64,000 nucleotides of DNA. Source: a virus. The translations under genes and the position numbers were made by a program. The notes below the pieces were generated by a model. The model was not told where the DNA came from and ran no database searches. It saw only the letters and a program-made list of their open reading frames with translations. Location of the stretch: IMG/VR virus record IMGVR_UViG_3300043466_002666; one strand, written 5' to 3'. This document shows, piece by piece, positions 40,569 through 46,013 of the stretch (its first letter is position 1; each line of letters opens with the position of its first letter).

Positions 40569-40638
40569 TGGAAGTGGTTGGAATCGAACCAACTACTGTG
40601 TGGATTGTCTCCGTGCCGCTCCAGTTGGCTTCACTTCC
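40569..40638 (-). ncRNA. tRNA-like RNA with a degenerate anticodon arm
   Basis: Perfect GGAAGTG/CACTTCC acceptor, GTTGG-TTCGATT-CCAAC T arm, GCC/GGC D arm; no 5-bp/7-nt anticodon arm. Confidence 0.75.
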
Positions 40639-40648
40639 ATGAAATCCT

Positions 40649-40682
40649 ACTATAGCAGGAGTTGTGGGGGCTGTCAACCCCC
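40649..40682 (-). promoter_or_regulatory. Sigma70 promoter directly upstream of the tRNA-like RNA
   Basis: TTGACA-17-TATAGT; -35 within a GGGGGTT/AGCCCCC inverted repeat. Confidence 0.75.
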
Positions 40683-40685
40683 TTT

Positions 40686-40844
40686 GCAGGCTCGCCACCA
40701 GTTTTGATTACGAGAAAACTGGAAACTCGGCAGAGTAAAAACTCCTCATCCGCACCAGTCGGCATATTTTATGTCCATCCGACGAGGACTAAATTGGGTC
40801 ATACTTGACTCCACCAGGGCAAGTTTTTAAGTCATTCCGAGACT
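40686..40844 (-). ncRNA. Structured RNA with repeated UGGYG elements (wcaG/manA-type cyanophage motif candidate)
   Basis: Stems AGTC/GACT, GTCA/TGAC, GTCC/GGAC, GAGT/ACTC and CCAGTTTT/AAAACTGG, with loop CTCG pairing to upstream CGAG; three CTGGTG copies. Confidence 0.65.
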
Positions 40845-41071
40845 TCTATATCATTGTATATTTGCCAGATATACTGTTTATGTTCTTCAAGCTTTTGAAT
40901 TGTCTCGTGCATTTTAATATAATTTTTTAGATCTAAACGATCTTCAATTTGTTTTAGTGTTGTGATTACACTTTGTATTTCGTCACAAACATTCAATAAC
41001 TTGAGAGAACAATAAGTTGTTTTTTGCATGGGAATTAGGGGACGCATCCGACCAGTACTGTTATAGACCAT
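40832..41071 (-). CDS. Small coiled-coil hypothetical protein (likely start at MQKTT)
   Basis: AT-rich ORF lying between structured RNA modules. Confidence 0.45.
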   Translation of the reverse strand: MVYNSTGRMRPLIPMQKTTYCSLKLLNVCDEIQSVITTLKQIEDRLDLKNYIKMHETIQKLEEHKQYIWQIYNDIEVSE

Positions 41072-41091
41072 CCGTGTCTCTGTGTATTTAG

Positions 41092-41298
41092 TTATTCTTT
41101 GGATTTTGGTTTATTGCATTCGTTACAATAATATGAAAATCCTGTCCTGAAATATTTTACCACTTGATAGTGGTCTTTGTCAAGGGGGTACTCAGTGTGA
41201 CATTTTGAGCACTGTCTAGTCCCACCACCAGCAGAGGTTTTCAAGCGTGTTGATGAACTGCTCGTAATAGACTGTACGACTTGGATTAGGTTTACCAT
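41092..41298 (-). CDS. Small zinc-finger protein (start uncertain)
   Basis: CSKC...YYCNEC. Confidence 0.5.
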   Translation of the reverse strand: MVNLIQVVQSITSSSSTRLKTSAGGGTRQCSKCHTEYPLDKDHYQVVKYFRTGFSYYCNECNKPKSKE

Positions 41299-41797
41299 CT
41301 TTCATGTCTTGGAGATACTGTATGATACCACGAACCACAGGGGTGTCCTGGAAGTATTCGTGCATTTTGTAACAATCAAACTTCTCAATGTATTCAACGA
41401 ATCCATGCAAAGGTGCCATGTTACGACGATATGCATAAATGAATACATCTTCATCTTTGATACCTTCTTTGTTTAGAATTTCTAATGGAGTATATTTTTC
41501 TCCATCATGTTCTTCTTCAAGTTCTTTTGCATCACCAAATACAAAATGAAGACCATCATAATATTTGTCATGCAACTCTTGGTCTGGTGCTACACGAAGC
41601 TTTTCATTTTGTTCCAAATAATAGTTCATGCGGGCTTTGGCGTCTTCATTCGTCAGGCGAAACACGATGTTACCAATGTAGTAATCTACAGGACCTCCAT
41701 ACATGTTTTCGGATGTTCTTTTTCTGAATGACAGATGAGTAATCTCAAATCCAGGTTCTTCGTATTCAGTTTCAACGAGTCCTTGTGAAATAGTCAT
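41216..41797 (-). CDS. Conserved cyanophage hypothetical protein
   Basis: 193 aa, ends LENLCWWWD. Confidence 0.7.
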   Translation of the reverse strand: MTISQGLVETEYEEPGFEITHLSFRKRTSENMYGGPVDYYIGNIVFRLTNEDAKARMNYYLEQNEKLRVAPDQELHDKYYDGLHFVFGDAKELEEEHDGEKYTPLEILNKEGIKDEDVFIYAYRRNMAPLHGFVEYIEKFDCYKMHEYFQDTPVVRGIIQYLQDMKDGKPNPSRTVYYEQFINTLENLCWWWD

Positions 41798-41997
41798 ACT
41801 TCAAAAGTATCAAGGTCTTTACCAGCTTTGATGGATTCTTTGCGGAGTTTCTTCAAATCCTTCATCATGGTTTTAATTTCTTTGTATGCATCATCGGCAT
41901 TCATCTTACCACCGATTTCCAATCCGACGATAAGATCTACCTTATCACCGAATCTAGCAAGTGCTCTTTCAAATTCAGTAAGTGATTCGTAACCCAT
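41794..41997 (-). CDS. Conserved cyanobacterial/cyanophage hypothetical protein
   Basis: FERALARFGDKVDLIVGLEIGGK...AYKEIK. Confidence 0.7.
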   Translation of the reverse strand: MGYESLTEFERALARFGDKVDLIVGLEIGGKMNADDAYKEIKTMMKDLKKLRKESIKAGKDLDTFEV

Positions 41998-42018
41998 AAT
42001 AAGTTAATTAATTAACTA

Positions 42019-42089
42019 AGCCCCTAGACAGAATTGAACTGTCGTCTCCGCTTTACAAGAGCGGTGCATCACCACAATGCTTTAGAGGC
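42019..42089 (-). tRNA. tRNA-Thr(TGT)
   Basis: Cloverleaf, CCGCT-CTTGTAA-AGCGG. Confidence 0.9.
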
Positions 42090-42092
42090 AAA

Positions 42093-42353
42093 TTATTCAG
42101 GCATATCTTCTGGATTTTCTAAGTCCACTGGAAACAAGCAAGGATGACATTCTTCATCAATTAAATAAAATGAAGTTTTGTATAGATCTTCTGGACTATA
42201 CTCTTCATTGTTTGAAGCATCAATTTGAATGTAAGGATCATCCTGCATTATTTGAGGAAGTTCTTCAAATGTAAACGGAACATTATTGATGAAATACATC
42301 TCAACAATTTCATTATTGTAAAAACAATACTTTGATGAGATTTTGTATTTCAT
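42093..42353 (-). CDS. Conserved cyanophage hypothetical protein
   Basis: IVEMYFINNVPFTFEE...YLIDEECHP. Confidence 0.7.
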   Translation of the reverse strand: MKYKISSKYCFYNNEIVEMYFINNVPFTFEELPQIMQDDPYIQIDASNNEEYSPEDLYKTSFYLIDEECHPCLFPVDLENPEDMPE

Positions 42354-42381
42354 GACTGTATCCTTCGATACAAATATTTAG

Positions 42382-44418: not shown

Positions 44419-44422
44419 GAGG

Positions 44423-44505
44423 TGGGCATAGTCGGACTTGAACCGACAAGGGCAAAGCCCGACTGATTTTAAGTCAGTTGTGTTTACCAATTTCACCATA
44501 CGCCC
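44423..44505 (-). tRNA. tRNA-Leu(TAA)
   Basis: ACTGA-CTTAAAA-TCAGT, long variable arm. Confidence 0.92.
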
Positions 44506-44513
44506 AAAATAAA

Positions 44514-44768
44514 TTAACGAACTTCGTAATCTAATTTCCTAACTTTTCTTTTAGGAACAGCTACTTGATCGTATATGGGTTGTCTTTGTTTTGGTTTAAC
44601 AAATCCACTTACCATTTCAACTTGGCTGATGTCCTCAGCTACTATAACAGGCAATCCGTTGTTGTCAAGTCGTATGTAAGCTCTATTGGGACACTTGCAT
44701 GACTGACCTTTGTTTGGAGCAGTTACTTGCAACTCCATGTTGCAATCTTTACATCTGATTTTGTACAT
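44514..44768 (-). CDS. Conserved Zn-binding hypothetical protein
   Basis: IRCKDCN...CKCPN...RKVRKLDYEVR. Confidence 0.65.
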   Translation of the reverse strand: MYKIRCKDCNMELQVTAPNKGQSCKCPNRAYIRLDNNGLPVIVAEDISQVEMVSGFVKPKQRQPIYDQVAVPKRKVRKLDYEVR

Positions 44769-44797
44769 TGATTCATACCTTAATTATTCAGTTGTCA

Positions 44798-44870
44798 CGG
44801 GTTAGGCAGGAATCGAACCTGCGACACACGCTTTAGAAGAGCGTTGTTCTATCCGCTGAACTACTAACCC
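44798..44870 (-). tRNA. tRNA-Arg(TCT)
   Basis: ACGCT-CTTCTAA-AGCGT. Confidence 0.92.
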
Positions 44871-44882
44871 AATTACCTTTTT

Positions 44883-44911
44883 AGTGTAGCAGACTAGTCT
44901 TGGTTTGTCAA
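44883..44911 (-). promoter_or_regulatory. Sigma70 promoter for the tRNA operon
   Basis: TTGACA-17-TACACT with extended TG, 12 nt before tRNA-Arg. Confidence 0.75.
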
Positions 44912-45292
44912 GGGGCAGTCTGGAACCCATGGAGCACAGAGTCGGATCTCTCCTCCCAATGCTTGACACTCATCAGTGTAGCACACGCTGGAGTCCACCG
45001 GTTTCACTGAGTATCGTGGTGATGGTATCGTAGCACGTCCATCGTCGTTTGTCAAGTCCTCATAATCTTTAATTGCTTTATCGACATCTCTCTCGATTCT
45101 TCTCTTGAGAAGCTTGTCGTCCTGTATTATATAGTCGTTTAATTGACCATTTGGAAAATACTTTCTTTGAATTTCGTCAATCAGGTCATACCAATGTATC
45201 TCATCAATCCCTGTGCATTTTGTAAGTACACCTACTGATGATGTAAGTATTACACCAATGATTGCAAAATTTATTACTTGCTTTTTATTCAT
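44894..45292 (-). CDS. Membrane-anchored hypothetical protein (start revised to MNKKQ)
   Basis: N-terminal TM; C-terminal CYTDECQALGGEIRLCAPW..C. Confidence 0.65.
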   Translation of the reverse strand: MNKKQVINFAIIGVILTSSVGVLTKCTGIDEIHWYDLIDEIQRKYFPNGQLNDYIIQDDKLLKRRIERDVDKAIKDYEDLTNDDGRATIPSPRYSVKPVDSSVCYTDECQALGGEIRLCAPWVPDCPLTNQD

Positions 45293-45329
45293 GAGGAAGG
45301 GGAGATCACCTCTCCCCATTATTTATCTG

Positions 45330-45692
45330 TTAAGCTCTAGAGTAACAGACACTTACCACTCCCTGTCCAGGAGATGCAATAGTAGAGAATGCCCCGTAGG
45401 ACAGGTCGAGGTCTCGTCCTCCGACATATGGACCTCTATCATTCACTCGCACAATAACTGATCTTCCATTTCGTTGATTTGTCACCCGTAACCTAGTTCC
45501 GAATGGAAGCCATTTATGTGCTACAGATTTACCATATGCATTGTATCTTTCACCGTTGGCGGTGGTTTGACCGTGATATCCATCACCGATACCATAATGA
45601 GAAGCCATTGAACATCCACTGGCCGCTTCAGCTTTTTGGGGCGTAAATCCAAGAAGTGTTGAAGCAATGAGAAGTGTTGAAATAAAACGCAT
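45330..45692 (-). CDS. RlpA-like (DPBB) lytic transglycosylase
   Basis: Signal peptide; ASHYG...TTANGERYN...AH..LPFGT...VRVNDRGPY..GRDLDLS; start revised to MRFIS. Confidence 0.9.
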   Translation of the reverse strand: MRFISTLLIASTLLGFTPQKAEAASGCSMASHYGIGDGYHGQTTANGERYNAYGKSVAHKWLPFGTRLRVTNQRNGRSVIVRVNDRGPYVGGRDLDLSYGAFSTIASPGQGVVSVCYSRA

Positions 45693-45812
45693 TAATTTGA
45701 ATAGAACTCTACATCCCAATAGAAAGGGGGTACACCCAACCTCTCGGAGGGCACTTTCCTGGGCACAACATGATAACACTCAACCGCTTATAATATAAAT
45801 TGGTGTTACCAA

Positions 45813-45903
45813 TGAGAAGGGAGGGAATTGAACCCCCGATGGTTCTTATGTAACGGTTTTACAGACCGCAGCCACACATATTGCCAACAGTAGCCACCTT
45901 CCC
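45813..45903 (-). tRNA. tRNA-Tyr(GTA) with enlarged D region
   Basis: GCGGT-CTGTAAA-ACCGT, long variable region, GGTTCAATTCC. Confidence 0.85.
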
Positions 45904-45906
45904 GAA

Positions 45907-46013
45907 AAGCCTGAAACCAGTAATGCCTCCTTCTATGCTATCTGCATAGCGAGTAACATATTTCCAGCAGGACTCTTGGCGGAGATGCCAAAAGGTTTAC
46001 TGGCTTCAGACTT
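45907..46013 (-). ncRNA. Candidate 107-nt structured RNA at the start of the transcript
   Basis: 17-bp terminal stem AAGTCTGAAGCCAGTAA/TTACTGGTTTCAGGCTT enclosing CTTTTGGC/GCCAAGAG and CTATGC/GCATAG hairpins; begins at the predicted +1. Confidence 0.7.

Follow-up and report, generated by a model that had tools for sequence, protein, structure and literature searches.

The transfer RNA (tRNA) operon of phage T4 contains, in addition to its tRNAs, the stable non-tRNA species 1 and 2 (rnaC and rnaD), which are released by host tRNA-processing enzymes. We know of no function that has been assigned to either of them. The subject of this report is a tRNA array with structured RNAs in its gaps, situated at positions 40569–46013 of a 64,000-nucleotide (nt) stretch of viral DNA (IMG/VR record IMGVR_UViG_3300043466_002666), the whole of which is referred to below as the window. 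The window represents DNA of a T4-like cyanomyovirus, and all of the features discussed lie on its minus strand. Like T4 species 1 and 2, the modules described here are structured non-tRNA RNAs within a phage tRNA cluster, and they are encoded on the same strand as the tRNAs and contiguous with them. In contrast to T4, the cyanophage array contains many more module types, as well as open reading frames (ORFs), several promoters and at least one module with a host counterpart.

Other structured RNAs have been associated with phage tRNAs. The GOLLD and ROOL RNAs, 500–800 nt in length, are often situated near tRNAs and in phages, and their co-transcription with tRNAs has been suggested (PMC5737381). 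The modules of the window share the tRNA-adjacent location of these phage RNAs but are 40–200 nt long, numerous and combinatorial. Two further motifs, manA and wcaG, were placed by Weinberg et al. 2010 (PMC2864571) among the candidate riboswitches with a likely cis-regulatory role. The record of the estuarine Synechococcus phage S-CREM1 annotates wcaG, tRNA-Met, tRNA-Leu, manA, tRNA-Asn, abiF and tRNA-Gly in that order (PMC9964418), so that the manA, wcaG and abiF part of the present finding is not new. The consequence of a placement flush with tRNAs is drawn in neither of these two papers (PMC9964418; PMC2864571). The kind of array is known; its new parts are the specific families, a host-matched orphan antitoxin and a re-reading of manA and wcaG.

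At least seven conserved RNA families were found in the gaps of the array, and four are apparently uncatalogued. The region is regarded, with moderate confidence, as an early-transcribed tRNA array whose modules are released as small RNAs by tRNA-processing enzymes, in a phage that infects Synechococcus-type picocyanobacteria. Cyanomyoviruses are among the most abundant viruses of lakes, estuaries and oceans, and their tRNA arrays have so far been read almost only as aids to codon usage. Several of the modules are present in cultured phages, which makes wet-lab work feasible.

Structured RNA families between the tRNA genes

An initial annotation, made from the letters of the window, had described nine tRNAs alternating with at least six GC-richer, strongly paired segments without ORFs, several of which abut tRNA ends within a few nucleotides. 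Nine tRNA genes were indeed identified by ARAGORN (42019–45903, all on the minus strand), eight of which are confirmed by the Rfam tRNA model, and all six segments that it named exist. Their G+C contents range from 0.44 to 0.57, compared with 0.25 to 0.40 in the neighbouring ORFs, and their fold z-scores, determined against shuffled sequences, range from −1.6 to −5.9. The gaps between tRNAs and abutting modules, from the ARAGORN and Rfam coordinates, are 0–4 nt. No credible ORF was found in any of the six segments, but the 5.5-kb region as a whole is not devoid of them, as about a dozen small ORFs (at least 12) are interleaved with the array. The modules are as follows.

45907–46013, minus strand: 107-nt three-way-junction leader RNA (fold z −5.9)
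45925–45958, minus strand: GAAGGAG hairpin core (pattern, covariation, nhmmer E value 7e-12)
44140–44345, minus strand: manA RNA, RF01745 (118.5 bits against a gathering score of 55.2; model positions 1–192 of 192)
43907–44063, minus strand: 157-nt composite spacer RNA (fold z −2.65; no Rfam match)
43907–43944, minus strand: GAUAGAGG helix module in its minimal form (pattern, pairing)
43485–43532, minus strand: abiF-motif hairpin (Rfam, 29.9 bits, below the gathering score of 37)
42466–42482, minus strand: trailer hairpin directly after tRNA-Asn (fold; compensatory change in L031)
42381–42462, minus strand: 81-nt RNA (family of 112 IMG/VR contigs, covariation)
40684–40791, minus strand: wcaG RNA, RF01761 (49.8 bits against a gathering score of 42, full model), with an upstream extension at 40792–40844
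40649–40683, minus strand: GC-rich hairpin, loop containing TTGACA; −10 box (TATAGT) 17 nt downstream
40569–40638, minus strand: non-decoding tRNA mimic (family alignment, nhmmer E value 4e-9)

Related viral loci used for comparison are denoted by L-numbers (L001, L015, L031 and so on), and placement statistics were drawn from approximately 330 viral loci. Covariation was assessed as the share of alignment cells that are paired and the number of pairs changed on both sides, in comparison with 500 shuffles and with slid controls.

In the Rfam scan only manA and wcaG matched, with abiF below threshold, so that the segments do not all belong to described families. The GAAGGAG hairpin, the GAUAGAGG helix, the 81-nt RNA and the tRNA mimic have no match in Rfam 15. 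The view that the module set is largely uncharacterised holds for these four but not for manA, wcaG and abiF, which are already annotated in S-CREM1 (PMC9964418). The four families are apparently undescribed when set against Rfam 15; they may be included in the 8,495 unnamed RNA candidates from IMG/VR reported by Fremin et al. 2023 (PMC10690425). Among IMG/VR viral contigs, the GAAGGAG hairpin occurs in 32, the 81-nt RNA in 112, and the tRNA mimic and the GAUAGAGG helix in at least 120 each. It is apparent from the alignments that the spacers are conserved, covarying RNA modules: 94–100% of the cells are paired (93.3% for the mimic) and 3–12 pairs are changed on both sides, whereas none of the 500 shuffles reaches the observed covariation score and the slid controls pair 21–51% of cells. 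Each of the four modules was detected exactly once in the window by nhmmer.

The 107-nt RNA consists of a 16-bp closing helix around three hairpins, the third of which is the GAAGGAG-hairpin motif. It has no Rfam match, none of 200 shuffled sequences was as stable, and it ends 3 nt before a Tyr-like tRNA. Approximately eight close relatives were found, with a few compensatory changes among them, and the promoter ahead of this RNA is kept, with a different −10 box, in L019 and L031.

From the outside inwards, the GAAGGAG hairpin comprises an outer stem, a bulged purine, the pairing CUC/GAG, an internal loop G/AAG, a 6-bp stem and the loop AGAUA. Its 27-nt core was also found in DSL-LC02 and DSL-LC03, in addition to the 32 IMG/VR contigs, three of which are evident chance matches in coding DNA of high G+C content. 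The core forms a free-standing hairpin of about 45 nt in most contigs, and in 22 of 53 copies the hairpin begins 0–4 nt after the 3′ end of a tRNA. The outer stem, which lay outside the search pattern, covaries (UGGU/ACCA, CGAU/AUCG, CAAU/AUUG, GGGGU/GCCCC). In the alignment, 94.4% of cells are paired and six pairs are changed on both sides (0/500 shuffles; slid controls 29–48%).

In DSL-LC02 (L002 2557–2946) and DSL-LC03 (L003 2523–2933), HNH endonuclease genes are annotated a short distance upstream of the GAAGGAG hairpin, overlapping tRNA genes or right next to them; the stretches fetched from these two phages carry no annotated tRNA or non-coding RNA feature. An identity as a HEARO/IscB-type RNA was considered for the hairpin and rejected, as the upstream HNH genes encode 129–136 amino acids, the size of homing endonucleases, and the majority of copies come after tRNAs instead. 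Between the GAAGGAG hairpin and the 81-nt RNA, further small hairpins recur in L003, L008, L012, L021 and L026, with the forms GGGGGAAAG...CUUUCCUGCC and GGGGGGAGGGG...CCCUCC. These additional hairpins indicate that the toolkit of modules is larger than the four families analysed.

The 157-nt spacer exactly fills the gap between tRNA-Pro and tRNA-Ala. It comprises a hairpin at the 5′ end, a middle hairpin that is variable, a further small one and, at the 3′ end, the GAUAGAGG helix; the modules are kept, with the middle swapped, in L015, L025 and L031, and a distant blastn search with the spacer gave no match. The last 38 nt of the spacer represent the GAUAGAGG helix, which has 14 bp and from which two A residues bulge out. 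An apical insert varies from 0 to about 45 nt across copies and is lacking in the window copy. A complementary 3′ strand is present in 100 of 125 raw pattern matches, which is the unbiased figure. In the alignment 100% of cells are paired, with three covarying pairs that do not constitute an independent test because complementarity had served as a filter; where only one side has changed elsewhere in the helix, the result is in every case a G-U or G-C pair. Of the 100 copies, 38 start 4–9 nt after a TTGAC-N-TAnnnT promoter, 35 end 0–5 nt before a tRNA and 21 directly follow a GAAGGAG hairpin.

Two tandem GAUAGAGG helices were observed in L270 (3869–3948) upstream of an ORF rather than a tRNA, and several other copies lead straight into a ACACAAACAC-rich 5′ untranslated region (UTR) and a start codon. 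Such copies ahead of ORFs indicate that the module also serves as an mRNA leader. No meaning was attached to a match of GGUUAAGUCCC, present in some GAUAGAGG helices, to 16S ribosomal RNA, as these letters covary away in other copies.

The 81-nt RNA is closed by GUAGGA/UCCUAC; it contains two hairpins that covary, joined by a conserved CCAAAACC joiner segment, and ends in a CCAC tail at its 3′ side. The 112 contigs contribute 68 distinct variants, and for the closing helix and the two hairpins 98.3% of the alignment cells are paired, with 11 pairs changed on both sides (0/500 shuffles). A possible fourth helix (P2) is weakly supported. A tRNA call follows 3–5 nt after the RNA in 85 of the 112 copies, and 68 of these 85 calls are His-atg or Leu-caa, i.e. 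they represent the tRNA mimic.

The tRNA mimic has a 7-bp acceptor stem (usually with G.A at 7–66), a D arm that contains GG, and a T arm of canonical form. The GG and UUCGAUU letters of the elbow are present, as in canonical tRNA (RF00005). In place of the anticodon arm, with its 5-bp stem, 7-nt loop and U33, there is a 3-bp stem with an invariant GACAA pentaloop. This stem covaries (GUG/CAC, GCG/CGC and GCA/UGC, with GGA/UCC in the window). Neither ARAGORN nor Rfam calls a tRNA at 40569–40638. ARAGORN labels many copies of the mimic Leu-caa or His-atg, and the Rfam tRNA model is silent on the copies checked in L003 and L008. The family includes at least 99 distinct variants, its alignment has 12 pairs changed on both sides, and a tRNA follows within 0–5 nt in 85 of 165 copies. 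Like mascRNA of MALAT1, a tRNA-like processing handle, and the YrlA tRNA mimics, which are bacterial Y-RNA-like molecules, the mimic keeps the tRNA elbow and acceptor without decoding; it differs from both in its open acceptor ends, its D arm, its 3-bp stem with the GACAA pentaloop and its lack of an Rfam match. The possibility that the 81-nt RNA and the mimic together represent tmRNA or YrlA was also considered and rejected, given the lack of an Rfam match and the open acceptor ends.

The distribution of the four modules was determined in cellular genomes and in cultured phages. Among 185,579 species genomes, the pattern of the tRNA mimic was found in only two contigs, both from metagenome-assembled genomes (MAGs). 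Patterns of the other three modules gave only mismatched matches in 301 genomes of the host family, no commoner than in a reversed control, and a host origin of these three was rejected on that ground. Their rarity or control-level occurrence in cellular genomes indicates that the four modules are virus-borne. Unannotated copies of the mimic are present in the cultured phages S-PM2, S-RIM8, S-RIM32, S-CREM1 and DSL-LC03, and of the GAUAGAGG helix in S-SRM01, S-CREM1, S-RIM8, S-SZBM1 and S-RIM32. The S-PM2 copy of the mimic occupies 164656–164729 of NC_006820.

Placement of manA, wcaG and the abiF-like hairpin

The window copies of manA and wcaG pass the Rfam gathering scores. In the literature both are candidates for cis-regulation from a 5′ UTR, whereas in the window manA lies flush between tRNAs and wcaG precedes the tRNA mimic. 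The manA RNA begins 1 nt after tRNA-Ile and ends 0 nt before tRNA-Pro. It does not occupy a 5′ UTR, as the next ORF is approximately 325 nt downstream, beyond two tRNAs. In all five arrays compared (window, S-CREM1, L015, L025 and L031) a tRNA was found 0–1 nt upstream of manA, and in three a tRNA also follows at 0 nt; two of the five have different tRNAs on the flanks.

Relatives of the window wcaG score 46–97 bits. Its upstream extension is conserved and resembles a further wcaG-type unit; a match to the extension was found just upstream of wcaG in L002, L008, L014 and L007, with partial overlap in L027, in a count that leaves out L020 and L026. A covarying GC hairpin comes after wcaG; its loop reads TTGAC in six of eight loci and GTGAC in L002, and L027 lacks the hairpin. 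In six of the seven other arrays this hairpin is followed by a tRNA 25–47 nt on, and L027 lacks that tRNA too; the window has the mimic where the tRNA would be. The hairpin at 40649–40683 could be a promoter, an expression platform of wcaG, or both. It is unusual for a −35 box to lie in the loop of an RNA hairpin; here a −10 box lies about 17 nt downstream, and the same arrangement was observed after wcaG in L001, L007, L008 and L014.

The flush position of manA between tRNAs, together with the position of wcaG before a tRNA in six of seven other arrays, favours free or leader RNAs. The two motifs have had the status of orphan riboswitch candidates since 2010; in this array they look like processed free RNAs, and they may act as free or leader RNAs rather than as 5′-UTR switches.

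The abiF-like element of the window carries a 14-nt apical insertion, which lowers its score, and ends 4 nt before tRNA-Gly. Orthologues without the insertion pass the abiF model (L008, 50.7 bits; L031, 44.8 bits; S-CREM1, 51.6 bits). The phage copy has the same hairpin architecture and GCCU...GC.CAAAC core as the described motif (RF03085; AbiFr, RCd22), and abiF-motif RNA has been shown experimentally to be the antitoxin of the AbiF/Abi_2 HEPN ribonuclease (bioRxiv 10.1101/2025.04.15.648962; PMC12737573). It was of interest, in this regard, that host genomes contain matching elements. Abi_2 genes above the Pfam cut-off were found in 15 of the 301 genomes mentioned above, which represent the family of a Vulcanococcus MAG, and in four of six fetched host loci an abiF-type hairpin (30.7–33.6 bits) is situated just upstream of the Abi_2 gene. 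The host AbiF-locus hairpins have an enlarged apical loop, as does the window copy, and in the alignment phage and host copies share a 5′ ACAC, the GCCU.U and AUGC.CAAAC core and a 3′ GUCACU tail.

A tblastn search of the window and of 329 viral loci (2.8 Mb), in contrast, gave no match to the toxin gene; 38 of these loci contain the abiF RNA. The window copy is not located immediately upstream of an AbiF/Abi_2 gene, and the ORFs next to it have no Pfam match. Where an antitoxin lacks its toxin and a tRNA follows after 4 nt, the simplest reading is that of a decoy aimed at the AbiF of the host, and the abiF-like RNA is, on the basis of these comparisons, probably an orphan antitoxin decoy. By this logic it resembles the pseudo-ToxI of phage PhiTE, a decoy antitoxin RNA, and not a toxin–antitoxin module. 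A close copy of a host antitoxin RNA provides a concrete, testable case of counter-defence by RNA mimicry in cyanophages.

Proposed release of the modules and alternative explanations

In the scheme proposed here, several sigma-70-type promoters would give rise to polycistronic RNAs made up of tRNAs, small ORFs, modules and linkers of 0–5 nt. The 5′ ends of tRNAs and of tRNA mimics would be cut by host ribonuclease (RNase) P and the 3′ ends by host RNase Z, the latter because none of these tRNA genes encodes CCA. Besides freeing the tRNAs, the cuts would liberate, as a by-product, the modules in between as discrete small RNAs, which their paired ends should make stable. Where the mimic is placed directly after another RNA, cleavage by RNase P would define the 3′ end of that RNA. 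The modules may be viewed as a shuffled toolkit rather than as one machine. The GAUAGAGG helix and the 107-nt three-way junction would be promoter-proximal leaders cut off by RNase P, and the GAAGGAG hairpin a tRNA trailer module. The abiF-like hairpin, as a putative copy of a host-family antitoxin, would most likely neutralise the AbiF HEPN RNase, an abortive-infection toxin. The GACAA-pentaloop RNA, which would keep the L-shape of tRNA and be unable to decode, is most likely a processing handle or a decoy for a tRNA-binding factor. Placement flush with tRNA ends, recurring in hundreds of viral contigs, fits release by RNase P and RNase Z. The sequences establish the anatomy of the modules, their conservation, covariation and placement, and the existence of a host counterpart of the abiF copy, whereas we infer co-transcription, cleavage and stability of the modules, together with every function in trans.

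Several observations weigh against release of the modules as small RNAs. Small ORFs and internal promoters interrupt the array, which makes the structure of the transcripts uncertain. In the window, neither the 81-nt RNA nor the mimic directly adjoins a tRNA. The terminator-like hairpin after wcaG also fits a cis-acting role. The loci were gathered with patterns taken from the motifs themselves, so that the sequence conservation of the cores is overstated, and the filter applied to the GAUAGAGG pairs, described above, counts in the same direction. Lastly, the window copy of abiF scores below its gathering threshold, and the host copies do so as well.

A tentative extension of the release scheme is that the array doubles as an RNA-based counter-defence island. 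Through tRNA processing it would provide, early in infection, decoys that include the orphan AbiF antitoxin, a tRNA mimic that sponges a host factor targeting or sensing tRNAs, and other modules (the GAAGGAG hairpin, the GAUAGAGG helix, the 81-nt RNA, manA and wcaG) as ligands for additional proteins of host or phage. The initial annotation had proposed that the RNAs may serve host takeover or anti-defence. The latter idea gains support for the abiF-like element alone, from its match to the host AbiF-locus hairpins and from the finding of no AbiF gene in the phage DNA searched; a role of the modules in host takeover is pure speculation.

The main rival to the release of functional small RNAs holds that the modules are only cis-acting processing aids, i.e. 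self-folding leaders, trailers and insulators that prevent misfolding of the tRNAs next to them, provide clean sites for RNase P and RNase Z and are degraded once cut. It would account for the stereotyped positions of the GAUAGAGG helix after promoters and before tRNAs and of the GAAGGAG hairpin right after tRNA 3′ ends, as well as for the free length of the apical parts of modules. It is plausible for simple trailers such as the covarying hairpin after tRNA-Asn, in which GAUACA/UGUAUC in the window corresponds to GCUAUA/UAUAGC in L031. Against it, certain letters are nearly invariant over dozens of variants (AGAUA and G/AAG in the GAAGGAG hairpin, GACAA in the mimic and CCAAAACC in the 81-nt RNA), which is more than inert spacers would need. 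The abiF copy has a specific family of host protein partners, and manA is a 200-nt pseudoknotted fold, far beyond what an insulator requires. As an account of the array as a whole, the processing-aid explanation is considered unlikely.

Less likely still is that the elements are riboswitches or attenuators regulating downstream genes in cis. This is how manA and wcaG were classed by Weinberg et al. 2010 (PMC2864571), and it would be consistent with the GC hairpin of the same kind found after wcaG in six of eight loci and with the ORF encoding an SLH domain downstream of it in the window. However, manA is followed by two tRNAs and the 157-nt RNA before any ORF, and its abutment to tRNAs leaves no space for an expression platform; wcaG of the other arrays leads to a tRNA 25–47 nt on and not to an ORF; and the modules outside Rfam mostly precede tRNAs.

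That the segments are decayed tRNA genes, or scars of recombination and homing-endonuclease traffic without a function of their own, is disfavoured as very improbable: HNH genes beside the GAAGGAG hairpin in DSL-LC02 and DSL-LC03, the shuffled order of modules between phages and the partly degenerate look of the Tyr-like tRNA would fit such an origin, but compensatory changes keep every helix over up to 96 distinct variants, the pentaloop arm of the mimic itself covaries, and the spread of families with near-invariant cores over many contigs is not expected from decay.

tRNA genes, promoters and neighbouring features

The tRNA genes of the array, and two of the promoters, are listed below.

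46020–46048, minus strand: sigma-70-type promoter (TTGACA, 17 nt, TAAGAT), with its predicted +1 at the first base of the 107-nt RNA
45813–45903, minus strand: Tyr-like tRNA (GUA) (ARAGORN, as Arg gcg; fold)
44883–44911, minus strand: sigma-70-type promoter upstream of tRNA-Arg (promoter match)
44797–44871, minus strand: tRNA-Arg(UCU) (labelled Pyl/cta by ARAGORN; Rfam alignment)
44421–44505, minus strand: tRNA-Leu(UAA) (ARAGORN, Rfam)
44347–44418, minus strand: tRNA-Ile(UAU) (ARAGORN, Rfam)
44064–44140, minus strand: tRNA-Pro(UGG) (ARAGORN, Rfam)
43834–43906, minus strand: tRNA-Ala(UGC) (ARAGORN, Rfam)
43410–43480, minus strand: tRNA-Gly(UCC) (ARAGORN, Rfam)
42483–42556, minus strand: tRNA-Asn(GUU) (ARAGORN, Rfam)
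42019–42089, minus strand: tRNA-Thr(UGU) (ARAGORN, Rfam)

Six sigma-70 promoter matches, agreeing at 10–11 of 12 positions, were found on the same (minus) strand as the array. Their positions include one 7 nt ahead of the 107-nt RNA, one ahead of tRNA-Arg and one between wcaG and the tRNA mimic.

Two of the tRNA genes were assigned differently from their ARAGORN labels. In the Rfam alignment the gene at 44797–44871 has a 5-bp anticodon stem, ACGCU/AGCGU, and the loop CUUCUAA; it is 92% identical to a tRNA-Arg of Syn19, and the homologous gene in L015 is Arg-tct. These results identify it as tRNA-Arg(UCU), and an amber-suppressor or pyrrolysine tRNA is ruled out by the anticodon loop. The gene labelled tRNA-Arg gcg at 45813–45903 is 91 nt long, with the anticodon stem GCGGU/ACCGU and the loop CUGUAAA (GUA), and it is situated where relatives have a canonical tRNA-Tyr. 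Its D arm is aberrant, with a stem of 5 bp and a loop of 14 nt, and pairing in the variable arm is poor. Given the oversized D arm and the failure to match the Rfam tRNA model, this divergent Tyr-like tRNA may be only partly functional.

The closest deposited relative over the stretch is S-CREM1, with approximately 74% identity in parts only. Neighbouring ORFs are matched by S-PM2, S-SRM01 and DSL-LC03, and megablast matches to cultured phages are limited to the tRNAs and one block of ORFs. The nearest viral record is a fragment of 45 kb in which the region is missing. Among the ORFs scanned, Pfam matches were obtained for a DPBB/RlpA-like lipoprotein gene within the array and for a gene with an SLH domain immediately downstream, and for no others. 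A permuted tmRNA-like gene, absent from the window, was found in the close relative L031 (5355–5684, plus strand; Rfam tmRNA_permuted, 60.9 bits; ARAGORN tag GGNSPLQNII). The array is bracketed by cargo unusual for a phage, namely SLH-domain, DPBB/RlpA-like lipoprotein and Peptidase_C39-like genes (39651–40532, 45330–45779 and 46072–46767, minus strand). Two group I introns, at 35555–35793 and 37078–37294 on the minus strand, are also present in the window, with scores of 84 and 66 bits, above the Rfam gathering score.

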